From assembly GCA_963713825.1 (NCBI GenBank), contig CAVQNG010000010.1:1-50586 (forward strand): DNA of 50,586 bases. Reading direction: 5' to 3'. The DNA is from an uncultured Acidobacteriota bacterium. GTDB taxonomy: Bacteria > Acidobacteriota > Thermoanaerobaculia > Multivoradales > JAHEKO01. A program made the translations under genes and the position numbers. Position 1 is the stretch's first letter. Each line of letters starts with the position of its first letter. Below, one piece after another: positions 4,703 to 46,900 of the stretch. Under the pieces are notes generated by a model. That model did not search any database, was not told where the DNA came from, and was given only the letters and a program-made list of their open reading frames with translations.

Positions 4703-4735
4703 CTGACACCCCCTGACACTGCCCCCAGCTAGTCT
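4703..4735 (+). promoter_or_regulatory. CTGACA direct-repeat promoter/operator upstream of WYL gene 1
   Basis: CTGACA-N4-CTGACAC-N10-TAGTCT; same architecture as at 32992 and 44981. Confidence 0.55.
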
Positions 4736-13592: not shown

Positions 13593-13820
13593 TGACCTGC
13601 CCCCCCCCCAGTGTTTGTAACACCCATTGTGTTGGGAACCCCGTTCATATTGAGGCATCGAGGCACCCCCAAAGCCTGGACCACCGGAAACTTGAAATTC
13701 TCAGTTCAATCTGCCTCCTCTAGCTCGGCTCCGGTCAGGAGCCGAGCGACGTATTCGACCGGAGCCAGGCCTCCCAGTGACTTGTGAAGCCGACTCACAT
13801 TGTAGTCCTCTTTCCATGCC
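13593..13820 (-). mobile_element. IS3-family remnants (terminal IR and transposase C-terminus)
   Basis: TGACCTGCCCCC...GTAACACC end at 13593; minus strand reads AWKEDYNVSRLHKSLGGLAPVEY (rve_3-like; stop at 13706), followed by a GTGGTCCA...GGGGG end. Confidence 0.75.
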
Positions 13821-13938
13821 GCCTGCAGTCCAGCTCCGCGGTCCATGTGACCTATGCCGCACCTCCCTACCCCTATGGGTGGCGTGCGCCCGTGGGGCCT
13901 TTGCTACCGTTCGGTGGTCGCGCCGCAGAAGGACCCTT

Positions 13939-16627: not shown

Positions 16628-16661
16628 ACTGTCAAATCCTGACAGTAATTCCAAGTAGCGT
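16628..16661 (+). promoter_or_regulatory. Palindromic operator/promoter upstream of the ssp-like operon
   Basis: ACTGTCA-N5-TGACAGT; TGACAG-N10-TAGCGT. Confidence 0.65.
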
Positions 16662-18195: not shown

Positions 18196-18211
18196 GGGAG
18201 AGTTGGGGATT

Positions 18212-19126
18212 ATGCGTTTCGGAGGACATGAGACCTTTGCCATTCGCGAAGGTTGGCTCCACAAGGGACTCAAGCTCCTTGTTGAAGAGCCACAGAGGCT
18301 AGTGGACGAGCACTCTGCTGACTGGCTCGGGGTGGGCAAGAATATGGCCAAGTCCATCCGCCACTGGCTCCACGCAACCGGCCTCTCTCAGCCTTCCGGC
18401 AAAGATGGGAGGAAGGTACTCTTCGAGGCCACAGACTTTGGAGGGTTGATCTACGAGGCTGACCCATATTTCATGGAACCCGGCACCTGGTGGGCGATTC
18501 ACGTCCACCTGGTCAGCAACCCCAACCAGGCAGCCAGTTGGTCGTGGTTCTTCAATGGTTTCAACCTGCCTCGATTCGAGCGGGCCACTTGCTTCGGGGC
18601 CCTCCAGAATCACCTGGAACTCACTCAACGTCGACCACCAAGCCTTCGGACCCTCCAACGAGACATTGCCTGCCTCCTAAACACCTATTCCAAAACAGTG
18701 CCCATCGAGGTCACCGACCCGGAAGAAGGCAAGATTTGCCCGCTAACCGAACTGGGATTGCTTCGCCACTTCCGAGTATCGGGCTTCTATCAAGTCAATC
18801 GAAACAGGAAGGACATTCCGTCTCACCTACTTGGCTACTGTGTCTCAAGAGATGAAGGGCTACGCTCCCTTGCAGCGACTACAAAGTCGATTGAGCTTAC
18901 ATTTCAACAGGCCGCCCATCAGCCAAATTCTCCAGGACGTGTATTCGCCTTGTCTACCGAGTCGCTATTTGACTATGTCGTGAGTATTGAGGCCCAAGAC
19001 GATAGCGACATTTCGATCTCAGGGCTGGCAGGTGACCGAATCCTGAAAGTCCGTTCGCGACCCCCTCTCGAATGGCTCACCGCCTACTTTGAAGTCGCCA
19101 TCGCTGGAGAACGCGATGCGGCGTGA
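18212..19126 (+). CDS. sspB: DUF4007 protein (SspB-like)
   Basis: MRFGGHETFAIREGWLHKG...LGVGKNMAKSIRHWL...DPYF...CPLTELGL. Confidence 0.85.
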   Translation: MRFGGHETFAIREGWLHKGLKLLVEEPQRLVDEHSADWLGVGKNMAKSIRHWLHATGLSQPSGKDGRKVLFEATDFGGLIYEADPYFMEPGTWWAIHVHLVSNPNQAASWSWFFNGFNLPRFERATCFGALQNHLELTQRRPPSLRTLQRDIACLLNTYSKTVPIEVTDPEEGKICPLTELGLLRHFRVSGFYQVNRNRKDIPSHLLGYCVSRDEGLRSLAATTKSIELTFQQAAHQPNSPGRVFALSTESLFDYVVSIEAQDDSDISISGLAGDRILKVRSRPPLEWLTAYFEVAIAGERDAA

Positions 19127-22100
19127 AGTCCGCGAGACAAGAGGAACCTCCTCACCTCTGGAAGCGCAGGCCTTCCTGCGCTCGATCAATCTTCGCTACG
19201 ACGCAAAACATGCAGATCGAATAGGGCACTTCCAGCCTACAGCCAAGACAGTTGGCTTGGTTCGGCAACTCTTGGGAGAGGACTCATCCGAGAGAGCCCT
19301 TCTAGTAGTCGCCCCCTACGGTTCCGGGAAGTCATTAGCTGCGTCCTATGTGTTGCAGCTGACTGAGAACAGAATAGACGCAGAAAATTCACTCGTGGCA
19401 ATAGAGCAGAGGCTGAAGCCTGTAAGTCCAGACCTGGCGAAGTTCGCTAGAAGGCGACGAACTAAGAGGGGCGCAGGGTTCGTCCTCGCCTTGCATGGGT
19501 ATCAACCATCCATCGGAGAGGCACTTAAAGGGGCTGCCTCCGACAGCATGCGCCGTCAGAAGCAGGGTCGAAGGGCTAGAACAATTGAGGGTTTGCCGAC
19601 CGGGACCCCCGACGAGGTAGTCCACCTCCTGTCGGTACTGCAAAAGAAGGCTACAGATGCGGGGCGAGACCGCATTGTCATTCTTTGGGACGAGTTTGGA
19701 AGGCACCTAGAGGGGCTACTGGCCGACGGACGCGCCAGTGAACTTCTTCTAATTCAGCAACTCGCCGAGTTTGCCAGCCGGACCAGCAACCAAGTCCCCA
19801 TCACCTTGGGCCTTCTACTTCACCGAAACCTTCTGAACTACGCAGCAAGTTTGCCGCACTCCGTTCGGTCGGAGTGGAAGAAAATCGAGGGACGATTCCA
19901 CACGATTCAATACGTTGACGACAGCAAAGAGATCCATCGGTTGATCACGGAAATCCTCTCGTCAAGGTTCCGAAACGGCCAGGCTCCTCGACCCAAGGGC
20001 TTTTCGAGTCTTGCGAGGAGGGCGCGACAGCTTGGACTCTTCTCTGACTACTCGGAAAAGGAGTTGACCGATCTACTTGCCAAGGGTTACCCAATTGAGC
20101 CGACAACTCTTCATCTTCTCCCTCGACTATCGGCCCGGGTAGCACAGAACGAAAGAACACTCTTCAGCTTTCTTTTTGGGGTTGACCCCGACCGAGCTAT
20201 TACACCCTCAGTTCTATACGACTACTTTTCCAGCGAAATGCAGTCCGATTCCACTGTTGGAGGCACATACAAACAGTGGCTCGAGACGCAGAGTGCGATC
20301 TCGAAAACCGCCGATGACCCGAAGGCGGTTGCCGCCCTGAAGACAGCCTGCCTGCTCGGCCTCGGCTTGAGTGGAGAAAGATCCAGAGCGGGCAAGAATC
20401 ACCTGCTCTTTGCTCTTGGCGGCCTCGAGGCCACCTCCAGTGGTGAGGTGGTGGTGGAAAGCCTGATTGACAAGAAACTCCTGCTACACCGCCAACATAG
20501 TGATGAGGTTGCAGTTTGGCACGGTACCGATCTCGATCTTCGCGGCCGGCTTCAAGAAGAAGAGCATCGACTCAAAGAGCATTTCGAGATCATTGATTTC
20601 TTGACCCGAGAAGTCCCTCCACCGACCTGGAAGCCTCTGAGATACAACGACCAGTTCCACGTTCGCAGATACGCCACTTCAACGTACATCTCTCTGGGTG
20701 AGTTGAAGCGCAACCTGCAACTTGAGTCGCACAACCATGTGACGCCGCCGGGCTGCGACGCGAGAGTCCTGTACTTGGTGCCAACCTCTCCGGTGGAACT
20801 AGAGGAAGCCGAGTCGGTCATTCGAGATGGACTCAAGAACAATCGTCTTCTGGTAGCGATTCCACGAGGGGAGCTGAATCTGTTCGGAGCAGCGCTCGAG
20901 GTTGCTGCGATCCAACACATGCAGGTCGATTCAGAGTTGCTCGAGTCTGACCCGCTTGCTGCAGCTGAACTTCAGCAAATGAGCGACGACAGTCGTGATC
21001 ACCTGGACAGAATGGCGGAAGGCCTTACGAACCCCTCCGATACGGGTTGTCGGTGGTTCTACCAGGGCAACGAGTTGACCATACACTCGCCAAAGGCACT
21101 TCGTGGTCAGCTATCAGAGGTGATGGAGCAGGTATTTCCGAGCAGTCCCAAAATCCGCAACGAGATGATCGTTCGGCGAAACCCGTCAGCTATCTTGGTG
21201 AATGCTCGCAAGAAGCTCCTGCTTGGAATACTCGACCGGACAGGTGAGGAGAATCTAGGGATCATCGGGAACTTCCCTGATGCATCGATGTTCCGCACTG
21301 TGCTTTTCAACACCGGCATCTATAGGCAGTCAACCAATGGCCTCTGGGGCTACTCAATGCCGGAGTGCATTGAGGACGAAGGGTTGCAGGCCGTCTGGCA
21401 GGAGATCAGAGACTTCCTCTCTCTTCCAAACGAGCAATTCAAGAAATTCGAAGATCTCTTCGACAGACTTGCGAGCCCCCCCTTCGGAGTGCGCGCAGGG
21501 GTCCTTCCTATTCTCCTCGCCGCCGGGCTAAAGGCCTTCCCCTCAGCAACTACTCTCTTGCGAGGTGGAGAGTACGTGCCAGATATTCTTCCCTCAGTCA
21601 TCGAGCACCTCTGCAAGCACCCTCAGAGCTATAACCTGAAGGTCCTTGATCTTGATACATCCACCAAGTCATACCTTGGAGAGGTGAGCAAGATCCTAGG
21701 AGAGGGATCCGATGTTGAAACCTACGAATCGGATCTACTCAGAAGGGCTTTCGAAGCTTGGGAAAGCTGGAAAGCAACATTGCCTGTAGGTGCGCGAACC
21801 ACCCGCCTTATTTCAGAGCGAACCAGGAAGCTCCAGGATCTACTTGGTCGCCGACTAGAGCCAGCTGAGCTGTTCTTGGCAAGGTTTCCGGATGCGATGG
21901 GTTGTGACGGCAGCAGTGACCCGACACTAACCAAGAAAATCAAGATGTCGCTGCACGAACTAGAAACTATTGCTGATCAGTATGCCGCCGCCGCCTCGAC
22001 GACTCTAAAGAGAAAGCTCGGCATGGGCGAGGCTTCGGAGAAGGACTCTGCCAGGAGAGTAGCTGAGACATGGGCAGACCTCTTCCCCACCGATCTTGCG

Positions 22101-22466
22101 CCTATGCTTCCCGACCCATCGGCAAGAGCTCTCATGAATCTAAGCATGAGACCATACCGCTCAGACAGCCAACTTGTGAATGCTCTTTCCAGCGTATTAA
22201 TTGCCAAACCTCTGAGTGCTTGGGACGACAGGTCTCTTCTAGATTTCGAACAACAGCTCAATGCTGCGGTTCAAGGAATCGAAGACCACGCCCTCACGAT
22301 GGTATTGGAAGGACCGCAAGCAACAAGGCAAGAAGCACGATCTGCATTGGGGAATATCTTGAAGAGGCGAATTGCCCGATCCTTTGGTATCTTGGGTGAG
22401 ATCCTTGGCGAATCTGAGGCCAGGACCTTCATTCAATCACTCGACGACCACCCGTCAGAGGACTAG
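19116..22466 (+). CDS. sspC: Large P-loop ATPase (SspC/BrxC-like)
   Basis: APYGSGKS, ILWDEFGRHLE, QNERTLFSFL, PPFGVRAG; lies between DUF4007 and the PAPS reductase. Confidence 0.8.
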   Translation: MRREVRETRGTSSPLEAQAFLRSINLRYDAKHADRIGHFQPTAKTVGLVRQLLGEDSSERALLVVAPYGSGKSLAASYVLQLTENRIDAENSLVAIEQRLKPVSPDLAKFARRRRTKRGAGFVLALHGYQPSIGEALKGAASDSMRRQKQGRRARTIEGLPTGTPDEVVHLLSVLQKKATDAGRDRIVILWDEFGRHLEGLLADGRASELLLIQQLAEFASRTSNQVPITLGLLLHRNLLNYAASLPHSVRSEWKKIEGRFHTIQYVDDSKEIHRLITEILSSRFRNGQAPRPKGFSSLARRARQLGLFSDYSEKELTDLLAKGYPIEPTTLHLLPRLSARVAQNERTLFSFLFGVDPDRAITPSVLYDYFSSEMQSDSTVGGTYKQWLETQSAISKTADDPKAVAALKTACLLGLGLSGERSRAGKNHLLFALGGLEATSSGEVVVESLIDKKLLLHRQHSDEVAVWHGTDLDLRGRLQEEEHRLKEHFEIIDFLTREVPPPTWKPLRYNDQFHVRRYATSTYISLGELKRNLQLESHNHVTPPGCDARVLYLVPTSPVELEEAESVIRDGLKNNRLLVAIPRGELNLFGAALEVAAIQHMQVDSELLESDPLAAAELQQMSDDSRDHLDRMAEGLTNPSDTGCRWFYQGNELTIHSPKALRGQLSEVMEQVFPSSPKIRNEMIVRRNPSAILVNARKKLLLGILDRTGEENLGIIGNFPDASMFRTVLFNTGIYRQSTNGLWGYSMPECIEDEGLQAVWQEIRDFLSLPNEQFKKFEDLFDRLASPPFGVRAGVLPILLAAGLKAFPSATTLLRGGEYVPDILPSVIEHLCKHPQSYNLKVLDLDTSTKSYLGEVSKILGEGSDVETYESDLLRRAFEAWESWKATLPVGARTTRLISERTRKLQDLLGRRLEPAELFLARFPDAMGCDGSSDPTLTKKIKMSLHELETIADQYAAAASTTLKRKLGMGEASEKDSARRVAETWADLFPTDLAPMLPDPSARALMNLSMRPYRSDSQLVNALSSVLIAKPLSAWDDRSLLDFEQQLNAAVQGIEDHALTMVLEGPQATRQEARSALGNILKRRIARSFGILGEILGESEARTFIQSLDDHPSED

Positions 22467-22469
22467 TTC

Positions 22470-23288
22470 ATGGCATCACTCCAAGAAGCCCTCAATTCGG
22501 TGGGCGACGTCTCGATACGGCATATCGTCAGCCTGTCCGGTGGTAAGGACTCAGCGGCGCTTGCCGTCTACATGCAGGACAAGTACCCACAGATTTCTTC
22601 GGAGTATGTCTTCTGCGACACCGGGGCAGAGTTGGAAGAGACCTATGAGTATCTCGAACGACTTGAGGCAGTCCTGGGAGCCCCGATCAAGCGCCTTTCA
22701 GCGCTGGACCTTCCGAAAGTCGCAGCCATCAAGAAGCCTGGGAGGTCTGCTTTCGACATCGTACTCAATGAGATATACGGCGGTTATTTGCCCAACCCTC
22801 GGGCCCGCTGGTGCACACGGATTCTCAAGATCGAGCCGTTCGAGCACTATGTCGGAAGCGATAGGGCTTTCAGCTATATCGGAATACGCGGTGACGAGGA
22901 TAGAGACGGGTACTCTTCGAAAAAGCCCCCAGTCCTGTCACAGCGCCCCAACGTCCTTCCTGTCTATCCATTCAAAGACGATGGGATCGGCCTCTCAGAC
23001 GTAAGGATCTTGTTGGAGAACTCTGGCCTAGGCCTTCCAAGCTACTACCGCTGGAGGTCTCGATCAGGCTGTTACTTCTGCTTTTATCAGCAGATGGGAG
23101 AATGGCAGCGCCTCAAGGATAACCACCCAGATCTTTTTCAGTCCGCAAAGACCTATGAGAAGGAGTCCGGCGAACACCGATTCACCTGGATCGAACGTCG
23201 ATCCCTGTCTGAACTCGAGAAGATCGAAAAACGGTATCCACTCCCAGTGGTCGACGAAGCTGATGGCTGCGCAATATGTCACCTGTAG
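22470..23288 (+). CDS. sspD: PAPS-reductase family protein (SspD/DndC-like)
   Basis: PP-loop SLSGGKDS, FCDTG, RWCT, RSRSGCYFCFYQ, C-terminal CAICHL. Confidence 0.85.
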   Translation: MASLQEALNSVGDVSIRHIVSLSGGKDSAALAVYMQDKYPQISSEYVFCDTGAELEETYEYLERLEAVLGAPIKRLSALDLPKVAAIKKPGRSAFDIVLNEIYGGYLPNPRARWCTRILKIEPFEHYVGSDRAFSYIGIRGDEDRDGYSSKKPPVLSQRPNVLPVYPFKDDGIGLSDVRILLENSGLGLPSYYRWRSRSGCYFCFYQQMGEWQRLKDNHPDLFQSAKTYEKESGEHRFTWIERRSLSELEKIEKRYPLPVVDEADGCAICHL

Positions 23289-23328
23289 AGCTGAAAAGGA
23301 CGTTCTAATCTGAGCCGGACGTCTACTG

Positions 23329-23961
23329 ATGAACAATCCTGAACTCAAGACAAAGTGGCACCAAGTGCTGGGAGCTGACCTCGAGGACGCTTTTGACAGA
23401 GGGGAGGGCCTAGAGGAACTAATCCCCGCTTGCCAGGCGATCTATGTGTGGAGGAGGAGCTTCCGGCCTCCCACTGGAGTTACGAGGAGCCCGGCCCAGT
23501 TCGCTGAGTGGATCGAGAGGAACAACTCGATCCCCTTTGCTCTTATTCAAGATAAGGAGCTCACCCATTTCGCTCGCTTGACTGAGCTAGTTCTAGGTGG
23601 CGGGGGATTAACTCCTGATAAGACCGAGACTCTTGGAGAATTTCTAAGGACTGAGAAGAGAAGGCGCTGGATGGCTAGATTCATGCGATCACTCCGTGAA
23701 TTTGCACCACCACTTTATGTCGGAGAAACTCACGACCTTCAGCGCCGTGCAAGAGATCACCTCAAAGGGGAGACCAACCTTGGCAACGCCCTCTCTGAGG
23801 GCCTTGGCCTAACATGGGCCGATTTGGAGCTGCTCTACTGGAACTTGGGCTCAAGGAAGACGACTGATCAGGACAGCGCCTCACTCAAATCGCAACGCAC
23901 CCTTTTCGAGATGATCACTACAAGATCGACAGTGGCTGGATTCGTAATTCGATCTGGATAA
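23329..23961 (+). CDS. GIY-YIG-like nuclease
   Basis: AIYVW ... LYVGETHDLQRRARDH ... late conserved Glu; widely spaced motif halves. Confidence 0.6.
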   Translation: MNNPELKTKWHQVLGADLEDAFDRGEGLEELIPACQAIYVWRRSFRPPTGVTRSPAQFAEWIERNNSIPFALIQDKELTHFARLTELVLGGGGLTPDKTETLGEFLRTEKRRRWMARFMRSLREFAPPLYVGETHDLQRRARDHLKGETNLGNALSEGLGLTWADLELLYWNLGSRKTTDQDSASLKSQRTLFEMITTRSTVAGFVIRSG

Positions 23962-23979
23962 TCTGCAGGAGTGTCCATA

Positions 23980-26042
23980 ATGCCAACGCCATCAGCGTCA
24001 ATTGGAGTGCCAACCACACCCAGTTTCGACTTTCTCTTCGGAAAGTTTGACCTTCTCGGTTTGGACGATTCCGTATTTCTCGACAACGATGAGTCTGAAA
24101 CAGGCAGCAACGTACCTGAGACTCGTGAACGAGCTTGCTGGCGCTGAGAATCGATCGTGGCGGCTAGAAGAGCTGTTTCAGCGAGACCTGAACTGGCCGA
24201 GAGTAGAACGCCAGATTGTTCCATACCTCAATACAGTCGAACGCCCTCAGTTCTTCAACTCTTTGACTGTCGCTTTGCTGCCACAAAAGGGGAACGAGTT
24301 GCAGCCAAGCTTCGACGAGGATGGCTGGGCCCCTCCGGAAGTACCTGCCGTGAAGTACGGAAAGAACTTTCCCATAGGGCCAATTCTCTGCAGCTACTGG
24401 GAGGATTGGAGTCACGTGTCCGAACCTCAAGCCAAGCTCGGGCAAGTTCGTTGGAACCCAGATGAGGTTTTTAGCGTTGCCATAGATGGTCAACATCGCC
24501 TTGCTGCGATCCAAAGATTCGCAGAGACATCGGGTAACGAAGAGGGATTAACGCAGACTCATGTGCCGATAATCCTGCTAATACTCGATGAGCGCCTTGG
24601 ATATCGGAGTCCCACTGGTCAGTCGGTCATCGAGGTTCTTCGCACTCTCTTCATAGACCTAAATAAACACTCAGAGAAGGTTAGCCGAGCAAGACAGATT
24701 CTGCTCGACGATAGAGACCCTCATTCACTTTGTGTAAGGGCTCTTGTTGGTGAGGAACTCAAGGATGGATCGGATGAACTGCTTTGCGAACCTTCTAGTT
24801 TACCCTTGAATCTCATCGACTGGCATACGGAACAAGCTCGGTTCGACGATGGCCCATACATTTCCACGATCCTCGGCTTGGACTGGCTTGTTGCTCAAGC
24901 TCTTGGAAGCAAGCCGATTAGGGACTACATGGACTACAGTCAAATCAGGCGCCAGATTAGGTCGTTCCGCAAATCGCTGGGGGTTTCACTGAGTGAAGCT
25001 GAAAAACGACTCAAAGAGCTCGAAGAGCTTGAATGGAGGCCTTTTAGCTATCGGGGAGAATCGAATGAAAACGAGCTGAAGGTAATTCAGAAGGCCTTTT
25101 CGGAAGTGTGGGCTCCGGGAATCGTGCGGATTCTCACCACGTTCCTGCCCTATAGGACGCTAATTGCGGAACGAAAAACCAGCGGTTCCCTGACTAGCGA
25201 GTTCGTTAGCTGGTTCTACCTCTTCACAAGAAAGGAAGAGGAGAAGTTCGGTGGAGAGGCAACCGAAGAGTACAAGAGGATTCTCGGCCGACTTGCGAAT
25301 CGAGACATCCCGCTATCAGAGAATCAGATGGACTTCAAACTCGAACGAGCTGAGGGTGTGAAATCTGAGAACCTCGCGTTCAACGTTGTGTTTCAAAGGG
25401 CGCTATTCCTGGCATTCATCGAGTTCCTCAAGATCGACTCCGACCATTTGGAAGAGCTCGCACCTGAAGACGATGACGACGGGATCCTCGATGAGATCGA
25501 AGAGTATGAAGATGATGATGACACCGAGGAAGACCTCGATAATACCCTTTGGTCAACTGTCGGCGGCAAGGCCTCGCTCAACTACGAGAGGGCTGAGCAG
25601 TTTGTTGAGGCACTGAACCGGGTTGTAGAACACCGCCCTGAATTTCTTGATAAAGATTGCCCTTTCGATCGAGAAGACGGCAATGAAGATCCACTCTGGG
25701 CAGGGATGCTACGTTCCTCGGAGGGGCCGATTGATTTCACGCTAGGAGCCTCCAGACGATCGAAGGAGCCGATCTACTGGGCAGCGGTCTGCTGATCTAT
25801 GTTCCGACAGCGGCGACGAAGCGATGGAAAGTGAATTCGACGACTTCTGGGCGCAAGTTAGAGAAAGTGACAAACTGCTTCACAAGAAACTCCGTAGATC
25901 GATAGATAGGTTCTTTACCCACTCGGAGAGTTCTTCAGCGGCACGTATTCTTGCAGGTACTGGGAGAGAGTACTCTCAGGAACTTGCGGAAGATGAAGCA
26001 AGAGATCGACTGAGGTGGGTGTTTGAGGCAATCAGGGCGTAG
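23980..26042 (+). CDS. DGQHR/DndB-family (ParB-like) protein; frameshifts near 24050 and 25790
   Basis: LFQRDL, FFNSLTVAL, IDGQHR, LFIDLNK; AGGAG then ATG 23980; ORFs 24002..25795 and 25824..26042 join across a shift. Confidence 0.8.
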
Positions 26043-26113
26043 CTAGAACCTGACGTAGGTGTTGCACGCCCAGTCACTTCGCTGGGCTCTGCCATGAGTC
26101 CTGCATTCAACAA

Positions 26114-27495
26114 ATGCCTCCAAGAAGATCTGCCACGGATCACGACCGGTTTCTTAAAGGCCCTCTATCCAGGAGCAGCTTGAGCTCTGAGCAAGCGAGA
26201 GAGGACTACAGGTCCAGAAGAACTAAGCAGGGGAAGGTCAGCACTCAGCCATCAGATTCTGCGGACAGCTCTACGCTCCCGGCCGCTGTAGACCTTAAGC
26301 ACCCTGGGACAGGCTTCTTGTTCAAGTATCAAAGAGAGCTCGTCGATGTTGCTCTCGAGCTCCTCTCAGGAAAGCTCCCCAAGAAAGCCGGATTAATGGC
26401 TCTGCCTACAGGAGGAGGAAAGACCCGCACCGCTTCCTGGTCTGTGCTTGAAGGATTGAGAGCTGAACTCATTTCAAGTGTTCTCTGGACAGCTCCAACC
26501 CGAGAGCTGCTCGACCAGGCATTCGAGACCTTTCTAGAGCTGTGGGCGTTTTCCCAGCTGTTGATCAACTTCGAATAGAAAGGTGCTATGTCTCTCGAAA
26601 AATAGAAAGACATCCGTTCGCATCTGTCTACTTTGCCACCCCACAGATGATCGCCAGCCGATTGAGGAGCAAGAGAGGTTCCGCCTCCTGGCCGGAAATC
26701 GACCTCGTCGTCTTCGATGAGGCCCACCACGCATCTGCACCGCAGTTCATGGAAGCAATCAAGGCTGTGAGAGCATCAAAACAAGGATCCAGGGCAGTCA
26801 TGCTTGGGCTCTCCGCAACTCCTGGCCGGTCCCAAGAGGCCGAAACGGAGGGACTCGTAGCTCTGTTTCGGCGCCAACTAATCGTAAGCAAGCAACTGGG
26901 AAAGAGGCCCGTCGAAGCGCTGCAAGACCTCGGAGTGCTTGCAAGATTGGACTTCGAGAGGATCGAGCTTGAAAGGTCCTGGCCCGGCACGGTGATGGAG
27001 CATGCCAGTCAACGCCGCCTTCCTATTAGTGAACTTGAAACAAATGTATATCGTTTCGATGCCGCTGTGAGAGCAATACTGAAAGTCGGTTCTACCGACC
27101 GCGTATTGGTCTTCACTGGCAGCATCGATCATGCCGAAGCTCTGGGTGCAGTTCTTCGGTCGCACGGCTTGAAGGCGGAGGCGATTTCGTCACGAACGGG
27201 ATTGGATGAGCGAGACAGGATCCTGCGCAGTTTCCAGGCAGGAAAGATCCATGTCCTGCTGAACAAGAAACTCCTCGCTACGGGATACGACTGCCCTGCC
27301 GTGCGCCACGCTTTTCTAACAGTACCTATTGGGTCCGCCATACTCTTCGAACAAATAGTGGGGAGAGCTTCAAGGGGGCCTGCTGTTGGGGGAAACCCAC
27401 GCGGGACTATCTGGGAGATTGACAACAATCTTAGAATCAATGGCTACCCATCCTCATACTACAGATTCCGAGATTTTGACTGGCTTTCGGCATAA
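26114..27495 (+). CDS. SF2 DEAD/DEAH (ResIII-like) helicase; frameshift near 26560
   Basis: LPTGGGKT in ORF 26114..26578; DEAHH, GLSATP, LATGYDCP and QIVGRASR in ORF 26542..27495. Confidence 0.85.
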
Positions 27496-27568
27496 TCAAG
27501 CCATTTGAGCTTGGAAGCAAGGGGAGACACAGGTCATCGCCAAGCAGCGAGCAGCCAGCATTCAGCGA

Positions 27569-29001
27569 GTGAAGACCGCAATTAGGCGGTCTTCACTATC
27601 AAAACCAATACGAGCTGCTCTCGAATTGAATCTACTCTCGCAGGAACGCTCGGTCTTGGATTTCGGTTGTGGCAGAGGCGACGACGTCAAGGCTCTCCGA
27701 GCTCTCGGATATTCATGTGTTGGGTGGGATCCGGCCTACCCCGTAGAAGATGATCCGCAGCCTGCGGATATTGTAAATTTAGGATACGTTCTAAACGTAA
27801 TCGAGAACCCAGCAGAGCGGGAGGAGTCTTGCTCCGCGCTTGGGCGTTGGCCCGGAAGCTGCTGATAGTCGCGGTTAGAACAACTCTGGAACTCAAGAAG
27901 CAAGTTCTTTCGCCATATAGCGACGGCTTTCTGACCTCGACGGGCACATTTCAGAAGTTCTATTCACCAGGCGAGCTTGGACAATGGATTGAAAGCCGGC
28001 TGGGGCCCAACCTTGGCTCGCCAGCGGCCCCTGGTGTCTTTCTCGCATTCAAGGACAAAAGAGAGCGGCAGAGGTTCCTAGCGTCTCAGTTTAGGCGCAA
28101 GAGAGGACCTTCTCGTCGAGAGATAGAGAAGGCGGTATTTGAGCACCACAAGACCTTGCTTGAGCCCCTAATGCTCTTTGTTCAGGCGCGCGGCCGGCTT
28201 CCTGGTCCCAAGGAGATCCCTGAATCGATCAAGATTCAGAACATCTTTGGCTCAGTGGCAAGAGCCTTCTCAGCCGTGACGGCAGCTACTGGCCCCGAGA
28301 TTTGGGGACAGATTCGCGACGAGCGGATTGTTGACCTCGTCGTATATCTGGCACTTGACCGATTCGGTGGCCGCCCGCGGCTCTCTGACCTAGCGCCCGA
28401 GCTACAGTTAGACATTAGGGCACTGTTTAGCTCATACAAGCGAGCTTGCCAAATAGCCGACGAGGCCCTCTTTGCCGCAGGGAAGACATCGGCAATTGAT
28501 GCTGCATGCCGGCAAGCAACCCATGGAAAGATCACGCTAGAGGCTTTGTATGTGCACTCAGAGTCAATCGAGGAGCTTCCGCCAATCCTGCGGATCTACG
28601 AAGGGTGTGCTCGCGTTCTCGTTGGGAGTGTCGAAGGAGCGAATGTTCTGAAACTGAACAGAGTGAAGCCACGAGTCTCCTATCTCTCCTACAGGGACTT
28701 CGATCGCGACCCTCACCCACAGCTCCAAGGTTCCCTTGTCGTCGACCTTCGGAAGCTGGACCTCAACTACTGGGATTACACCGATTCAGAGAATCCATTC
28801 ATTCTGCATAGGAAGGACTTACTCGTCCCTGATAGCTATCCTTTGAAGAAGAGATTCGAACGCCTAACTCGTCAAGAAGAAAGGCGTGGGCTGTATGACT
28901 CTGGCACTCCAATTGGTACGGCTAAGGATTGGAGTGAGCTCCTCCGGAGTAAGGGGCTACAGCAACGAGGGCATCAGATTGTCAGGCTTTCGGGCCAATA
29001 G
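27569..29001 (+). CDS. DNA phosphorothioation-associated putative methyltransferase; frameshift near 27830
   Basis: KTAIRRSSLSKPI, LDFGCGRGDD, VNLGYVLNVIE, TGTFQKFY, LRIYEGCA, NPFILHRKD. Confidence 0.85.
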
Positions 29002-32974: not shown

Positions 32975-32991
32975 CGCTCAGGTCACCTCGA

Positions 32992-33023
32992 CTGACAGCA
33001 TCTGACAGTCTCCGGGCTACAAT
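32992..33023 (+). promoter_or_regulatory. CTGACA direct-repeat promoter of structured RNA copy 1
   Basis: CTGACA-N4-CTGACAG-N9-TACAAT. Confidence 0.65.
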
Positions 33024-33029
33024 GGGAAC

Positions 33030-33185
33030 AGCATCAGGAGTGGCCTGACACAACGTCGGGCCCGCCAACCTGGGACGGACACCCAAGGTGGTTCTCGCCG
33101 AGCGGGGATGCGGTCGCCCGAGAGGGTGACAACGAAGTGTCCAGCGAAGACCCGTTCTCCTGATGAAGGATGAACGGATTTTCTC
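33030..33185 (+). ncRNA. Candidate structured RNA/leader, copy 1 (closing stem, four hairpins, pseudoknot, terminator)
   Basis: CATCAGGAG/CTCCTGATG closing stem; internal hairpins; GGACAC/GTGTCC; conserved with compensatory changes at 45019..45177. Confidence 0.65.
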
Positions 33186-33266
33186 ATTTGCGGCCCTTCC
33201 GTTCTCTGCTCAAAGGCTTCACCGGCGGAGCCCTCCCACGACGAGGCGAGGAGAAATCCCATTCTG

Positions 33267-33370
33267 CCCTTGCCATCTCACCACCAAGAAAGCACAACTC
33301 AGCGCCTGAAATGTACAGCTGGGAGGCAAAAGTGACAACGCGCCAGAGTAAGAGTTGGACCGAGTTGGTT
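33267..33370 (+). pseudogene. Remnant of the LytTR gene upstream region and 5' end
   Basis: Similar to 45830-45930 (cttgcca.ctcacc...aagcacaactcagcgcct.aaatg.acagctgggagg...ttggaccgagt), then the similarity stops. Confidence 0.7.
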
Positions 33371-33476
33371 GAGTTCGACCGGGAGGTCGATGGGCAGACT
33401 CAGCCCCTGATGAATGGCGCTCTCCGTCTTTGCAAGCAGCCTGGGATTGAGAGTTAGAATCCGATACCCTGCGATC

Positions 33477-34781
33477 ATGGCAACATCTTTACCTCGAATC
33501 GTGGCAGATCGGCTCACTGGGTCCGAGCCGTTCAAAGACGCCGGTCGCGACCTGGGCTTCGATGTCCTCAGCTTCTGGCGCTGGAGTACCTCAGACCTTC
33601 TGAACAACGCAACTCGCGGAGTCATTGCAGAGTTCCTGGTAGCTCAAGCTCTTGGGATTGCCGGCGACTCCATCCGCGAGAGTTGGGATGCTTTCGACCT
33701 GACCGCCAGGGACGGAACCAAAATCGAAGTCAAGTCCGCCAGCTACGTTCAAAGTTGGTATCAGCGAGACTATTCACAGATCAGTTTCAATGTCCCAGAG
33801 ACTCGTGCCTGGGATGCACAAACCAATCGTCAGGCGGAAGAGCCGAAGCGCCATGCCGACGTCTATGTATTCTGCCTGCTTTCGAACCGAGACCAGACCA
33901 CAATCAATCCCTGCGACTTAGCACAATGGCAGTTCTACGTCCTGCCCACATCGGTTCTAGACAATCGGAAACGCAGTCAGCTTTCGATCACTCTGAAGTC
34001 CCTCGAAGCGCTCTGTCCTGCCGTTGCCTACAGCGGCCTGGCAACTTCAATTCGAGAGGCGGCTGCCCTTCAAGCTGTTCCGGACCGAAGGTCGAAGCTG
34101 AAACAACTTGTAGAAGCTCTGCGGCACAGAACTCCCGAGATGGAGCGGAAACTGGAGGAACTCAAGGAAGAAGGAAGAGGCATAGCTGCGCGGAAGGACA
34201 TGATCTGGTACCAATTGGTTCACAGTCTGGCAACTCTTCAAAGGAGCAGCGGCTGGGAGAATCTCAAAGCTGACCAGACGCTGCTCGACTCGATCTCGTC
34301 AGAGAACCTCAGCGCGCTCGATCGGGAGCGACGTCACTCGAGGCTGAAACAAGCCATGTGGCAGGCGAAGGTCCGAATGCCAGACAAGAAGGCCGACTGG
34401 CTGCTCGAGAACTTCGACAGGATCGAAGCAATGGGTGGTGCGGAAGCAGCAACCAGAACAGCTCTCGCATTGTCTTCTCCTGAAGAGAAAATCGACTTCA
34501 TGATGGCCTTCCGAGGCATCGGTGCAAAGTACGGTCGGAATTCCTGGATGGATCTCTACGATCCCGACTTCCGACAGAGTATTGCTATCGACACGAGGAT
34601 CAGCAGAATCACGGAGGCCTTGGGATTCGCGTTCAGGAAGAGCCAATATCGGGAACATGAGGCGTTCTTTCAGCAGGTCGCTGAAGAGGCTGACCTCGAG
34701 CCCTGGGAATTGGACAGGTTGCTTTATCAGTTCACTGATCATTTTCTGACCGCAATAGAGGGGCCTTCTCTTGACTCTTGA
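33477..34781 (+). CDS. PD-(D/E)XK-type nuclease fused to an HhH DNA-glycosylase-like domain
   Basis: RGVIAEFLV...FDL...IEVKSASY; C-terminal FRGIGAKYGRN...IAIDTRI...WELDRLLY. Confidence 0.7.
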   Translation: MATSLPRIVADRLTGSEPFKDAGRDLGFDVLSFWRWSTSDLLNNATRGVIAEFLVAQALGIAGDSIRESWDAFDLTARDGTKIEVKSASYVQSWYQRDYSQISFNVPETRAWDAQTNRQAEEPKRHADVYVFCLLSNRDQTTINPCDLAQWQFYVLPTSVLDNRKRSQLSITLKSLEALCPAVAYSGLATSIREAAALQAVPDRRSKLKQLVEALRHRTPEMERKLEELKEEGRGIAARKDMIWYQLVHSLATLQRSSGWENLKADQTLLDSISSENLSALDRERRHSRLKQAMWQAKVRMPDKKADWLLENFDRIEAMGGAEAATRTALALSSPEEKIDFMMAFRGIGAKYGRNSWMDLYDPDFRQSIAIDTRISRITEALGFAFRKSQYREHEAFFQQVAEEADLEPWELDRLLYQFTDHFLTAIEGPSLDS

Positions 34782-34956: not shown

Positions 34957-36861
34957 CTAGAAGATGATCCCGCTCGGGCCCGACCCAAGAACTCGCTTGC
35001 TGGACTCCGGCAGCCAAGAGCCTGCTTGATACCTGTCGGTATGGAGAATGAAGGTCTCCCGCCCAACTGGCTGGTGGGTTATGAACCGAACGGTAGCCCC
35101 TCCTCCATCACCAAGCTCCACACTCCAGCGCCAATCCACTGGTATCGGATCGCTCCATTGCCATTGATCGGGTTCACTGAGCTGTGACAGACGGGCGGGA
35201 GTGCTGTCCTCTGGCTCCGATCCAAGAGGGTTCGAATCAACAATCACATGAGGGCCCCAGCTCAGCCCGTGCCACCAGGCACCAAATTCAGAAATCTCCC
35301 GAATGAGAAGAGAGGCTTCGAGATAAGCCCGGAAGCACTGCTTTCCCTCGAAGGCTGAAATCGCCGGTGCAAGCTGTTCCAGTGTTGATTCTAGGTCTGG
35401 GTCTGTTGCCCGAATCGTCATACCTTCGGGAATCGCAAATAAAGTCCCATTTCCGCCCACTCCGGCTCGAAACACATGGCCTAGAAACGAGATTCCTTCT
35501 CGCACACTGAGCTCTCTGAGACAACGAGTGAGCCTTGCCGACTCAACGGGTACGAGGAAGTCACCGTAGCCCCTCTCGGCCGGACCGTTCCGAGTGATCT
35601 CCTGGGCACCTGGCAAAGCTGCGATTTCTGTCGTCTCTTCAGGAACATCCAGGGAACGCTGCAGGCAAGAGCGGAGTTTCCCAACGGTCGAACCAGCATA
35701 CTTTCGGATCGCGGCTTTTCGCTTAGAAGATGAGCCTGAAGCTCCACGCTTTTTGCGAGACTTTGACGTTCCAGCATTCTGAGCCCTCGCACACTCAGCG
35801 CTCTCCTCGATGAGCCATCGGAGGTGGAAACCCTCAGCGTAATATGCCGATATGTTGTCCTCGCCCCGCTGCCGATTCCTCTCCAGGGCCACCTCGACGT
35901 CGCATGTGAGAGTGTCAAACTTGATCTCGTACCCGCATGCTTTCAACTGCTTGAGCATCAATTCGAGTGGTTTGTTGTCTTGCCCGATGAGCTCGACCAC
36001 GATGTTGCGCCGCTCTTCGATTGCCCTGCGAGCCACTGACCGACCGAGGCCCTCCATTTTCTCTTCCAGCTCGCCCGGAAAGTCCAGTACCTGCCCGCGA
36101 CACATTGCGAGAAAGATGCGAGGTGCATCCAGGTGGACGTATCCCGAATTGAGCTGCTCCCGTATGAACCGAGATTTCCCGGTGCAGACCGCCCCGCTGA
36201 CGACTCGCAAGGTCGGGGAACCTGCCGGCATTAACGAACTCGGATCGAAGAACCGCGCGAGCACCTTCTCGGCTTCGCTCTCGAAGAGGCTATCCAGGGC
36301 TCGTTCGAGTCGATCAACGAGGTCCCGCGAGCCCGAAGGGGACTTTTCTCGATAGATCTCCAAGAGCCTCGCGTAATTCCAAAGAGGACCGTCTCTCCCT
36401 TCTTTAAACCGATCCCAGACCCCAGGGCCAAGAGTTCGCAAGTCCTCGGCCGTGGCTTCGGCGTTGTGCACTTTGTCCGCAACAGAAACCAGTAGGGCTG
36501 AAGCAGAGGCATTACGCAACTTCTCGTGGTATCCGAGCTTCCGGGTCCACCATTCTGGTTTCGGGTCTTCGAATGCATCTGTACAGTGCTCGACAATGTC
36601 CGCGACCCCATCGCCGAACTCTTCCCGAATCTCTTCGAGCGTCTGTCGCCCTCCCGCGTCTTCGGGTCCATCGTGCAGCAGAGCGGCAATGACTTCGTCT
36701 TCGTCACCACCGTTCTCGATGACGAGTGCCGTCACTGCCAGGATGTGCGACAAGTAGGAATTGGGTGTCCCCTTGCGGAGCTGATGCCTGTGAAGCTGGT
36801 GCGCCGTCTCGAACGCTCGGGTGAAGCGATCCGAATAGGGCTGAAAGCCTGACTCAGTCAT
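34957..36861 (-). CDS. RelA/SpoT-type HD hydrolase fused to a zeta-toxin-like P-loop kinase and an unknown domain
   Basis: HRHQLRKG...YLSH...AALLHDGPED...ADKVHN; GAVCTGKS...ALERNRQR. Confidence 0.8.
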   Translation of the reverse strand: MTESGFQPYSDRFTRAFETAHQLHRHQLRKGTPNSYLSHILAVTALVIENGGDEDEVIAALLHDGPEDAGGRQTLEEIREEFGDGVADIVEHCTDAFEDPKPEWWTRKLGYHEKLRNASASALLVSVADKVHNAEATAEDLRTLGPGVWDRFKEGRDGPLWNYARLLEIYREKSPSGSRDLVDRLERALDSLFESEAEKVLARFFDPSSLMPAGSPTLRVVSGAVCTGKSRFIREQLNSGYVHLDAPRIFLAMCRGQVLDFPGELEEKMEGLGRSVARRAIEERRNIVVELIGQDNKPLELMLKQLKACGYEIKFDTLTCDVEVALERNRQRGEDNISAYYAEGFHLRWLIEESAECARAQNAGTSKSRKKRGASGSSSKRKAAIRKYAGSTVGKLRSCLQRSLDVPEETTEIAALPGAQEITRNGPAERGYGDFLVPVESARLTRCLRELSVREGISFLGHVFRAGVGGNGTLFAIPEGMTIRATDPDLESTLEQLAPAISAFEGKQCFRAYLEASLLIREISEFGAWWHGLSWGPHVIVDSNPLGSEPEDSTPARLSQLSEPDQWQWSDPIPVDWRWSVELGDGGGATVRFITHQPVGRETFILHTDRYQAGSWLPESSKRVLGSGPSGIIF

Positions 36862-42638: not shown

Positions 42639-42671
42639 AGGCTACCCAAGAGCCCTGTCAGGAGCTGACAG
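42639..42671 (-). promoter_or_regulatory. Palindromic operator/promoter of the addBA-like operon
   Basis: CTGTCA-N5-TGACAG-N10-TAGCCT on the minus strand. Confidence 0.65.
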
Positions 42672-43452: not shown

Positions 43453-43577
43453 TCGCTAGTCCGCGGCCCAGTTGCCGCCGCTCCCAGCGACCCCCAAGCC
43501 CGCCGATCTAGTCGGATCCCGGATAGCTGGCAGCCCCTGTCAGGGCCCTGGTGCAAGATACCTTCGAGGAGGTGTCG

Positions 43578-44215: not shown

Positions 44216-44317
44216 TCGGTCCTCCTCGCAGAAAGTAGATCGTGCCGACCTGAGTGCCCGGTGGTCTGCCCTCTGGTGTCAGCCTTGTCCATCGCAGTCG
44301 AGTATGCGGGTTTCGAG

Positions 44318-44354
44318 TGTCAGCATTTGACAGCAATCCGAGCCAGGATAGGCT
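44318..44354 (+). promoter_or_regulatory. Palindromic operator/promoter of the HD gene
   Basis: TGTCA-N5-TGACAG-N10-CAGGAT; also reads TTGACA-N16-TAGGCT. Confidence 0.6.
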
Positions 44355-44905: not shown

Positions 44906-44980
44906 GAGCACGAATTACCGGGGGCACCTCTACGGGGCGAGGAATGAGACAGCGATGGAGGGCTCGAGGGCCGCTTCTTA

Positions 44981-45012
44981 CTGACGGAATCTGACAGTCC
45001 CCGAGGTACAAT
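44981..45012 (+). promoter_or_regulatory. Direct-repeat promoter of structured RNA copy 2
   Basis: CTGACG-N4-CTGACAG-N9-TACAAT. Confidence 0.65.
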
Positions 45013-45018
45013 AGAGAC

Positions 45019-45177
45019 AGCATCAGGAGTGGTCCGGCACGCAAGCCGGGCCCGCCAACCTGGGACGGACACCCAAGGTGGTTCTCGCCAAGCGGGGATG
45101 CGGTTGCTCCCAAGAGGGTGACAACGAAGTGTCCAGCGACGACCCGTTTTCCTGATGCTCAGGTGAACGGGTTTTCT
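45019..45177 (+). ncRNA. Candidate structured RNA/leader, copy 2
   Basis: AGCATCAGGA/TCCTGATGCT closing stem; same hairpins and pseudoknot; terminator ACCCGTT..CCTGA-TGC-TCAGG..AACGGGT-TTTCT. Confidence 0.65.
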
Positions 45178-45253
45178 CATTTGCGGCCCTTCCCTCCCCC
45201 GCTTGCACCTCCGCTTGCGGCGTCCTCCCAAAACCGAGGAGGAGGAATTCACC

Positions 45254-45760
45254 ATGAGTGCTGACGACCGTCGCAAACCCGACAATGAAGCGATCATCGA
45301 GGAGCTCATGCAAGTGAAGGCTCGCGGGGTGCCTGCCGGCATCTGCGGGCGAGAGTGGTGCGAGGTGTGTGGCAACGAAGGGAGCTTCACCAGCTTCGGG
45401 GGTGCCATGTGCTCACATACCGCCGGTGGCCACTTCGTCTGTTGGAGTTGCCGTCAGGAACGAACCCGCGCCAGTTCCGAGGAGGGCACGCCGCCGACCC
45501 TGGGCAAGCTGATCCTCGAGCGCGGGTTCCGCTACTGCGAGGGCTGTGGTCGGAAGGTGGTCCTTCCGGAGAGCACCCTGGAGGAAGCCCTGAAGCTACC
45601 GTTTACCTGCCCGGCCTGTGAAGGGCTCGACCGAGGCCTGGCTGCCCGGAGGCGCTATCTCGAGCACGAAGCCACCAAGGAACGGGGCCTGGAGCGAGCC
45701 GCAGCCCGGATTCGCTGGGCGAAAGCAGGTATCGAAGAGATTCTCGAGGATGATGAGTGA
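45254..45760 (+). CDS. Cys-rich (multi-CxxC) putative zinc-finger protein
   Basis: GAGGAGGAGG RBS; CEVC, CSH, CWSC, CEGC, CPAC. Confidence 0.75.
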   Translation: MSADDRRKPDNEAIIEELMQVKARGVPAGICGREWCEVCGNEGSFTSFGGAMCSHTAGGHFVCWSCRQERTRASSEEGTPPTLGKLILERGFRYCEGCGRKVVLPESTLEEALKLPFTCPACEGLDRGLAARRRYLEHEATKERGLERAAARIRWAKAGIEEILEDDE

Positions 45761-45893: not shown

Positions 45894-46263
45894 ATGACAA
45901 AGGCGCCAAAGCGAGTGTTGGACCGAGTCGTGCTGCACCTGGGCGATGGGGTGCGGCGAGTCGTGGATCCTGCCGATGTCTACTACCTGGAGGCCCAGGA
46001 TGAGGACACCCGGGTGCGGTTACGCTCGGCCCGGCCGCTGGTGGACATGCGGCCCATGGGTGAGCTCCTGCCCCATCTTCGTGCCCCATGGGTTCCTCCA
46101 GATCCATCGCGAGTACGTCGTCAACCTCAGGCAGATCCGTCAGATCCGCCGGCGGGACGACGGTCGCGACTGGGAGGTCAAGCTCGAGCCCCCGGTCAAC
46201 CGCATCCTGCCGGTGAGCCGAGGCGCCGTGGCGAAGTTGTGGAAGACCTTCGAGGCTGACTAG
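45894..46263 (+). CDS. Stand-alone LytTR DNA-binding domain protein; frameshift near 46078
   Basis: DVYYLEAQDEDT...GFLQIHREYVVNLRQI...LPVSR; GGAGG RBS. Confidence 0.85.
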
Positions 46264-46861: not shown

Positions 46862-46900
46862 ACTGTCAGCCGTTGACAGTCGAAGGATGCACAATAGGTT
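46862..46900. promoter_or_regulatory. Palindromic operator between divergent genes
   Basis: ACTGTCA-N5-TGACAGT; N10-CACAAT on plus, N10-GAGGAT on minus. Confidence 0.65.

Follow-up and report, generated by a model that had tools for sequence, protein, structure and literature searches.

What kind of RNA, and what kind of control, is encoded by an intergenic block that occurs twice in a 50,586-nucleotide stretch of acidobacterial DNA? The stretch, referred to as the window, is the whole of contig CAVQNG010000010.1 (C10) from assembly GCA_963713825.1, which represents an uncultured member of Acidobacteriota (Thermoanaerobaculia, Multivoradales, JAHEKO01) with a genome of 5.42 Mb in 38 contigs. 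An original prediction, made from the letters only, had described the blocks as a pseudoknotted RNA of about 155 nt, possibly under damage- or phage-responsive control, and had not recognised a family. We consider it very probable that both blocks are mRNA 5' leaders carrying an S-adenosylmethionine (SAM) riboswitch of the SAM-I/IV family followed by a termination platform, and that they work as SAM-dependent OFF switches within a multi-copy cassette of a defence island. The analysis tested the fold of the aptamer and its family membership, and examined both alternative helices for complementarity and covariation.

The duplicated blocks and the SAM-I/IV family

The recurrence of the block is borne out by a blastn comparison within the window, in which positions 32991-33200 and 44980-45193 are 87.4% identical over 215 columns. 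The mean column identity of both blocks in a MAFFT alignment is 87%. The conserved block starts at about 32991, earlier than the 33030 given originally, and takes in the promoter; the duplication thus stands, while its start has to be moved upstream. A scan of the whole window against Rfam 15 at gathering thresholds returned exactly two matches, both to RF01725 (SAM-I/IV). Copy 1 (33026-33146) scored 52.4 bits (E 7.9e-06) and copy 2 (45015-45138) 48.0 bits (E 7.4e-05), with the E-values computed for the whole window. Both matches lie on the plus strand, as do all features of the two copies given below, and both span positions 1-99 of the 99 positions of the model. These scores are above the gathering threshold of 41.1 bits, and the match to RF01725 is far above chance. 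The original prediction had proposed this very comparison with cmscan and had stated that it would be refuted if the RNA matched an Rfam family already known; with both copies above gathering, that outcome was obtained.

The anatomy of the aptamer follows the family. P1 of copy 1 pairs GCAUC (33031-33035) with GAUGC (33107-33111) and, like P3 (33064-33092), was established from the Rfam alignment and a script pair check. P2 (33040-33063) has nine pairs, one bulged U and no internal loop, and P4 (33094-33106) is a short hairpin within the junction. P5 (33113-33130, GUCGCCC-GAGA-GGGUGAC) falls outside P1, as does the 3' strand of the pseudoknot PK-2, in which GGACA of the P3 loop (33077-33081) pairs with UGUCC (33138-33142) according to the script pair check. 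For copy 2, the Rfam alignment places P1 at 45020-45024 with 45097-45101 and PK-2 at 45067-45071 with 45130-45134, and the minimum free energy (MFE) fold computed with RNAfold reproduces P1-P5. Each complementarity that had been listed for the hairpins P2, P3, P4 and P5 is present in the script check. The suspected pseudoknot between GGACAC and GTGTCC is also real and corresponds to PK-2 of SAM-I/IV; the complementary hexamers are GGACAC 33077-33082 and GUGUCC 33137-33142 in copy 1, and GGACAC 45067-45072 and GUGUCC 45129-45134 in copy 2.

The two copies differ in P2, whose strands are GGCCUGAC/GUCGGGCC in copy 1 and GGUCCGGC/GCCGGGCC in copy 2. These changes are compensatory. P3 and the P4 stem are identical in both copies. 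P2 and P4 are slightly longer, by a few pairs, than in the Rfam consensus, the extra pairs being handled as insertions. Folding z-scores are -3.3 for copy 1 and -2.6 for copy 2.

Comparison with the related classes supports the same placement. PMC6890682 describes SAM-I/IV as an element in which P2 is continuous, PK-1 is absent, a P4 helix is present and P5 and PK-2 are arranged as in SAM-IV, and Weinberg et al. 2010 (PMC2864571) describe a SAM-I/SAM-IV variant ('SAM-I-IV-variant') without an internal loop in P2. Both window copies show the P1-P2-P3-P4 junction with a continuous P2 that lacks a kink-turn or PK-1, and both have the P5 hairpin 3' of P1 and the PK-2 contact from the P3 loop to the 3' tail. 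SAM-IV, as presented in PMC6890682, shares the ligand-binding core and the PK-2 and P5 arrangement, whereas it has no P4, a split P2a/P2b and a PK-1. The window element, with P4, a continuous P2 and no PK-1, differs from SAM-IV in each of these respects. Judged by its sequence and alignment, the element is best regarded as a new member of a known, structurally solved riboswitch class and not as a new RNA family.

We infer from membership in this family that the two leaders depend on SAM as the ligand. In the cmscan alignment, all upper-case consensus positions of the SAM-pocket core are kept except for one A->G change in the joining strand J1/2. A specificity variant for another ligand, such as S-adenosylhomocysteine (SAH) or a different adenosyl compound, could be suspected from a gene context outside methionine metabolism and from the P2/P3 junction, which reads CCCGCC in the island copies and CUCGGC in the metH copies of the clade, with the first P3 pairs differing as well. 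At all these positions, however, it is the island copies that agree better with the Rfam consensus, and they outscore the metH copies; all but one of the highly conserved consensus positions are retained, and the J1/2 change from AAGAG to AGGAG is also variable among the metH leaders of the clade. A change of ligand is therefore very improbable, and recognition of SAM remains the expectation.

Covariation was assessed on 39 aligned leaders, comprising copies 1 and 2 of the window, two further copies of the same genome (one on contig C3 and the one at metH), 29 loci of relatives and six riboswitches from five metagenome loci. The structure tested was the SAM-bound aptamer plus terminator, with 50 pairs and 1894 cells. 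Standard pairs occupy 92.9% of the 1894 cells, and sliding the 3' partner by 1-3 columns lowers this share to 38-47%. The aptamer helices are 95-100% paired. Changes on both sides were found in 29 of the 50 pairs, and none of 500 shuffles attained any of the five observed measures; this count, like the permutation result given below, overstates the significance and is not a probability, because the leaders are related. PK-2 is paired in 95.4% of cases and is nearly invariant, and covariation is therefore uninformative on this helix. The RNA structure is real and under selection.

Predicted competition between terminator and antiterminator

Downstream of the aptamer, both copies carry an intrinsic terminator that is contained in the RNAfold MFE structure. 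That of copy 1 (33152-33189) consists of a bulged 10-bp hairpin (33152-33177) followed by AUUUUCUCAUUU, and that of copy 2 (45141-45182) of a hairpin (45141-45173) followed by a T-rich tail. An alternative long-range helix joins the 5' end of each leader to this region. In copy 1, CAUCAGGAG (33032-33040), which comprises the P1 5' strand and J1/2, pairs with CUCCUGAUG (33157-33165) over 9 bp; in copy 2, AGCAUCAGGA (45019-45028) pairs with UCCUGAUGCU (45150-45159) over 10 bp, with a duplex energy of -20.4 kcal/mol. The 3' strand of this helix in copy 1 (33157-33165) is the left arm and loop of the terminator. The long-range stem is an antiterminator because one of its strands is common with P1 and the other with the terminator.

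This stem had originally been taken for the helix that closes the whole RNA. The pairing exists, but the aptamer is closed by GCAUC/GAUGC, and the longer stem belongs to the alternative state. The view of the blocks as a riboswitch-like leader in which the 3' strand of the stem competes with a terminator was correct. The long-range stem, being real and conserved, would also be the argument for a new pseudoknotted RNA family closed by it. Such a family is hardly credible given the full-length match to a curated, structurally solved family and given that the stem, which shares its strands with P1 and the terminator, is absent from the ligand-bound fold.

Both alternative helices are preserved among the 39 leaders. 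The terminator helix is 82.3% paired, with eight of ten pairs changed on both sides, and a T-rich tail (a T-run, or five or more T among the 9 nt behind the hairpin) is present in 29 of the 39. The antiterminator is 85.2% paired compared to 30-54% when slid, and one of its pairs varies between GC (14 leaders), CG (10) and GU (6). Since bulges blur column-wise pair counts, duplex energies were also computed per leader. With RNAduplex, the 5' segment and its own left arm reach a mean of -18.2 kcal/mol, compared to -9.2 ± 2.8 kcal/mol for shuffled arms, and when partners were exchanged among leaders, none of 5000 permutations matched the observed duplex energy. On sequence and covariation evidence, the intrinsic terminator excludes a helix that is built partly from P1, and this platform of terminator and antiterminator on SAM-I/IV is typical of the clade.

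The following course of events is proposed. Transcription would start about 7 nt after the TACAAT box, and the first ~115 nt would fold as the aptamer, with P1, the continuous P2, P3 and P4, then P5 and PK-2. Bound SAM would hold P1 (GCAUC/GAUGC) closed, leaving the left arm to pair with the right arm; the resulting bulged hairpin and its U-run would cause RNA polymerase to terminate. When SAM is scarce, the weak 5-bp P1 would be displaced by the 9-10-bp helix between the P1 5' strand plus J1/2 and the terminator left arm, and this antiterminator would block the terminator and permit read-through. The element would thus act as an OFF switch, with the downstream genes being produced at low SAM.

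In the S-box (SAM-I), a SAM-dependent OFF switch that acts by intrinsic termination, the ligand stabilises P1 and lets the terminator form, and the textbook arrangement has the P1 3' strand shared with the antiterminator. The window element is likewise a predicted SAM-dependent OFF switch acting via intrinsic termination. It differs in that the P1 5' strand plus J1/2 pairs directly with the terminator left arm, so that the left arm has only two competing partners, and also in lacking a kink-turn or PK-1 and in possessing PK-2 and P5.

Several observations weigh against a working switch of this kind, in addition to the relatedness of the leaders and the invariance of PK-2. Covariation of the antiterminator is modest, as only two of its nine pairs change on both sides, and two of its five covariation measures do not exceed those of shuffles. 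In a nearest-neighbour model with forced pairs, the state with P1 and terminator is favoured over the antiterminator state by about 5 kcal/mol (-70.0 vs -65.3 and -71.5 vs -66.8 kcal/mol for the two copies); read-through without SAM would therefore have to be kinetic and co-transcriptional. A simple terminator scan of the window flagged neither hairpin, which is probably due to the bulged stem. Neither window copy precedes a methionine or SAM gene, which is atypical for the family, a location of this kind being customary for RF01725 without being one of its structural criteria. There is also no open reading frame (ORF) near the terminator of copy 1, the next long ORF following only 225-290 nt further on.

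Distribution of the riboswitch and its cargo genes

The genome harbours four RF01725 matches above gathering, namely the two in the window, one at C3:1898069-1898191 and one at the start of contig C2. A fifth match of 35.4 bits, which is below gathering, is located directly upstream of metH on contig C5, a gene for a cobalamin-dependent methionine synthase of 1164 aa. This is the housekeeping copy. The four strong copies lie in accessory DNA and outscore the genome's own metH copy. The copy on C2 is split by the assembly: its aptamer is found at C2:1-167, its terminator and leader at C3:1903029-1903115. Given this break inside the copy, the 52-kb, low-GC contig C2 is probably the neighbour of chromosome contig C3. 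Downstream of this fourth copy lies a Gp49/HigB-like and HTH gene pair.

Among 151 related genomes, a tally that takes in the unpublished genome G006 (from which nothing else was drawn), RF01725 was matched at E <= 0.001 in 73 and above gathering in 42, and 64 of the 73 have a single match. In the 29 loci of relatives, the first long downstream ORF is of metH type in 21 (20 by Pfam, L036 by tblastn), encodes MTHFR in one and a Cys/Met pyridoxal phosphate (PLP) enzyme in another, and has no family in six (L008, L011, L014, L020, L024 and L029). A pattern scan of GTDB species representatives yielded 84 stretches, of which 80 were analysed; an ORF, selected by a rough rule, was obtained from 75 of them. 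Pfam families of methionine- or SAM-pathway type were assigned to 42 of these 75 ORFs and other families to three, while 30 had none at E <= 1e-8. The 42 comprise Abhydrolase_1 (28, of ~400 aa and presumably MetX-type), Cys_Met_Meta_PP (7), S-methyl_trans (3), SAM synthetase (2), homoserine dehydrogenase/aspartokinase (1) and PALP (1). With methionine and SAM genes downstream across the clade, which uses SAM-I/IV before metH, MTHFR and Cys/Met PLP enzyme genes, the family is used as expected. The window copies are exceptions: they are multi-copy, lie in a defence island, are preceded by an operator-like repeat and stand before non-methionine genes. The riboswitch core pattern had no match in IMG/VR viral contigs.

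What these exceptional copies would control is best seen in copy 2. After a gap of 115 nt from the riboswitch, an ORF at 45254-45760 (+) encodes a protein of 168 aa that has two CxxC...CxxC zinc ribbons and, at its C-terminus, a helical hairpin. It is followed at 45946-46263 (+) by a gene for a 105-aa LytTR DNA-binding domain protein (Pfam LytTR, 3.1e-08). The copy on C3 precedes a zinc-ribbon paralogue that is 75% identical and has a sub-threshold Pfam DZR match, so both zinc-ribbon genes of the genome follow a riboswitch. The family has 36 homologues of 44-95% identity in a collection of 5.8 billion proteins, none of which has a telling name or any Pfam domain precomputed. When metagenome contigs were scanned with the zinc-ribbon family, 11 loci were obtained, eight of them strong matches; three weak 30-residue matches (L050-L052) were left out, and two loci start inside the gene and are uninformative. 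All five loci with at least 241 nt upstream have an RF01725 match above gathering (44.4-55.6 bits) 89-119 nt before the zinc-ribbon gene, and a sixth, L044, begins within the riboswitch. The link between riboswitch and zinc-ribbon gene persists down to 53% protein identity. In L047, a LytTR homologue follows the zinc-ribbon gene and a second riboswitch precedes a different small ORF, while in L011, from a genome of the same genus, a LytTR-like ORF comes after the riboswitch and the zinc-ribbon gene is lacking. The varied cargo of these two loci indicates that promoter, riboswitch and leader behave as a cassette with exchangeable cargo. Its proposed composition would be an operator-bearing promoter, the riboswitch and a conserved leader, with a zinc-ribbon gene and then a LytTR gene as the usual cargo.

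The zinc-ribbon protein has no family in Pfam, NCBIfam or PADLOC. Its AlphaFold2 (AF2) model has a pLDDT of 89.5, and Foldseek found no PDB match at E <= 0.001; the best VIA-align Z is 5.0, from helical rows only, and the Atlas contains unnamed clusters only (0.90-0.91, low recognition). Phage and plasmid collections gave no tblastn match, and among the 151 genomes no homologue was found outside the own genome apart from two weak partial matches. An ORF of 104-113 aa without a Pfam family is convergent to the zinc-ribbon gene at L006:7020-7334 (+) and, on the minus strand, at L044:654-968, L045:1672-1986, L046:1226-1540, L047:2805-3146 and L047:4947-5285. It is 82-97% identical across the metagenome loci, better conserved than the zinc-ribbon gene, and adjoined by the CTGWCAS repeat described below in several loci.

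In the leader of copy 2 (45223-45247), a UCCUCCC motif (45223-45229) faces the Shine-Dalgarno (SD) run GAGGAGGAGGA (45237-45247), the two being paired in the fold. This pairing is a possible SD-sequestering hairpin and may add a layer of translational control; it folds no better than shuffles (z -1.55 and +0.73). A UCCUCCC motif 8-15 nt upstream of an GGAGGAGG SD run is conserved among cassettes that differ in their cargo, and Aminicenantes metagenome-assembled genomes (MAGs) also show it in their SAM-I/IV leaders.

In copy 1, alignments identify a remnant of the conserved cassette leader at 33190-33274 (+). The similarity ends at the ribosome-binding site of the other copies, and the zinc-ribbon gene is therefore missing. 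By these alignments, copy 1 has lost its usual cargo, and a nuclease-like gene is now downstream. This first long ORF (33414-34781, +) encodes 455 aa, or 434 aa from 33477 in the database version. Residues 20-220, in its N-terminal half, are 57-58% identical in pairwise comparison to a domain labelled PF26887 by its source, a family that is not in the local Pfam and is elsewhere fused to Mrr_N or HIT domains. The domain contains a D...EVK motif, which would be typical of PD-(D/E)XK nucleases. The C-terminal half has a weak N-glycosylase/DNA-lyase match (NCBIfam PRK01229, E 0.0024). The 455-aa ORF had no match in the local Pfam and no usable match in the Atlas, and analysis of GC3 by frame could not tell real ORFs of the island from spurious ones.

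The state of copy 1 raises the question of whether the island copies are hitch-hiking relics that were duplicated with island DNA and have no regulation left. Mainly for copy 1, this could be argued from the end of the cassette similarity at a former ribosome-binding site and from the distance to the next long ORF. Elsewhere in the genome, C2:8031-8189 (-) is a decayed riboswitch copy in which the P1 5' strand and J1/2 are replaced and which has no Rfam match, and C2:5027-5101 (-) is a fragment with terminator and leader only; both are traces of cassette turnover. The copy at the start of C2 carries one PK-2 mismatch. Yet copy 1, at 52.4 bits, outscores both copy 2 and the metH copy, and all its helices and the terminator are intact. 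The differences between the copies are compensatory, and the riboswitch-zinc-ribbon link is kept at low protein identity. The truly decayed copy, which no longer scores, gives the picture of lost selection. We thus regard the relic explanation as unlikely.

The lack of adjacent cargo in copy 1 could also fit a leader of ~155 nt that, once terminated, acts in trans as a small RNA, besides or instead of control in cis. The SAM riboswitch transcripts SreA and SreB of Listeria reportedly act in trans, and with SAM bound, terminated RNA that is structured and stable would build up from four or more loci. The conserved downstream gene at a fixed distance points instead to control in cis, which makes a role in trans decidedly improbable and leaves the SAM-responsive mRNA leader as the preferred reading.

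Promoters and the defence island

The TACAAT box noticed about 7 nt before each copy is present as a -10 box at 33018-33023 and 45007-45012, in both cases 6-7 nt before AGCAUC, and transcription of copy 1 would start near 33030. A TAnnnT hexamer lies at the same distance before AGCAUC in 13 of 14 aligned leaders, the exception being the metH copy with TTGACA-N17-TAACCT. Nine nt upstream of the -10 box, copy 1 has an operator-like repeat, CTGACAG-N3-CTGACAG (32992-33008); a pattern scan located the counterpart of copy 2, CTGACGG-N3-CTGACAG with one mismatch, at 44981-44997. Written as CTGWCAS-N3-CTGWCAS, the repeat has two half-sites of 7 bp, each nearly palindromic.

When one mismatch was tolerated, the pattern CTGWCASNNNCTGWCAS gave 14 matches at eight sites of the window compared to 0.32 expected, and none of 100 shuffles reached 14. 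The further sites are located upstream of a WYL gene (4703-4719), between a NERD helicase and the desulfurase (16629-16645), in a divergent region adjoining AddAB-like genes (42655-42671), and at 43527-43543, 44317-44333 and 46863-46879. At several of the eight sites a TAnnnT box lies 9-10 nt downstream of the repeat. By its position, the repeat looks like the mark of an island-wide regulon that takes in a WYL regulator, the phosphorothioation genes and the AddAB-like genes. The genome has three WYL genes, and exact repeats occur ~200 nt upstream of two of them. The repeat is also kept in front of the accessory riboswitch copies of other loci: the exact motif was found in 15 of 136 loci, all 15 being accessory-cassette loci and none a metH locus.

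A WYL protein or, equally, the LytTR protein or some other factor is a candidate for binding the repeat. BrxR and CapW are reportedly WYL-domain regulators of defence genes, and the layout here presumably resembles the PafBC promoter motif. The island shares with such WYL systems two HTH_11-WYL-WCX proteins and a repeat just upstream of a -10 box without a canonical -35. WYL regulators, among them PafBC, DriD and SiwR, are described as controlling DNA-damage and phage-defence genes, and PafBC as acting via a promoter motif (PMC6789036). PafBC differs in its host, which is an actinobacterium, whereas the host here is an acidobacterium. The genome encodes DUF222-HNH and PafBC-like proteins, which could point to an actinobacterial origin; this reading was rejected, as no WhiB gene was found in the genome and its lineage is Thermoanaerobaculia. 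The case for damage- or phage-responsive control is circumstantial and consists of the repeat together with its two copies upstream of WYL genes.

The window is a defence island. It contains two HTH_11-WYL-WCX regulators (4927-5871 and 13777-14883), an AAA_23 ATPase, several helicases, TerB, an HD_4/AAA_33 protein, an AddAB-like helicase-nuclease pair and an ADP-ribosylglycohydrolase. A DNA phosphorothioation gene set (17029-29001) comprises a cysteine desulfurase, DUF4007, a 1125-aa protein, a PAPS-reductase-like protein, a DndB-like protein, a split helicase and a phosphorothioation-associated methyltransferase (TIGR04096, 1.2e-115); we take the first four of these to resemble the SspABCD phosphorothioation genes. 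The 634-aa protein encoded at 34957-36861 (-) has HD_4 (RelA/SpoT-type hydrolase) and AAA_33/Zeta-like kinase domains, and an HD_4 protein also adjoins the cassette in L047. Island segments that are ~90% identical are duplicated between C10 (46360-50280) and C2 (2450-7200), including ADP-ribosylglycohydrolase genes at 49082-50206 and C2:2523-3800. Large Ser/Thr protein kinase and TPR proteins flank the window island (785-3778, +) and the cassette region of C3 (L006:11-2074, +). A match to the c-di-GMP-I-GGC variant RF03167 at L006:2712-2806 (-), which corresponds to C3:1892711-1892805, is below gathering (53.1 bits vs 59, E 5.5e-10), and a second of 36 bits lies at L014:2395-2495 (-). Both are on the same strand and a few kb from an accessory SAM-I/IV copy, in two different genomes.

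This setting invites a further reading, in which a mobile defence-island cassette has taken over the riboswitch as its metabolic sensor. The promoter would be gated via the CTGWCAS repeats and the leader by SAM, and a collapse of SAM, caused for example by a phage SAM lyase or by methionine starvation, would let the zinc-ribbon/LytTR pair reprogramme the island; the island-wide promoter regulator may then be one of the WYL proteins. We regard this extension as speculative and on the whole rather unlikely. If it is true, methionine starvation or a phage SAM lyase would threaten the SAM-dependent methylation and DNA-modification systems of the island, and the cassette would provide riboswitch-based sensing of phage counter-defence.

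Taken together, SAM-I/IV is a textbook family and no new RNA class is involved; the unusual part is the context, in that a presumably SAM-sensing leader has multiplied in cassette form within defence-island DNA. In the literature searched, most subscription journals being outside its coverage, no natural SAM riboswitch was reported from a defence island. For the family, the 39 leaders document a SAM-I/IV platform in which the terminator left arm and the P1 3' strand compete directly for the 5' strand. The conserved link between riboswitch and gene marks the double zinc-ribbon family and its LytTR partner as putatively SAM-responsive, which is a classic route to function assignment. If the SAM level gates genes of the island, cofactor depletion by phages would be linked to the regulation of defence.

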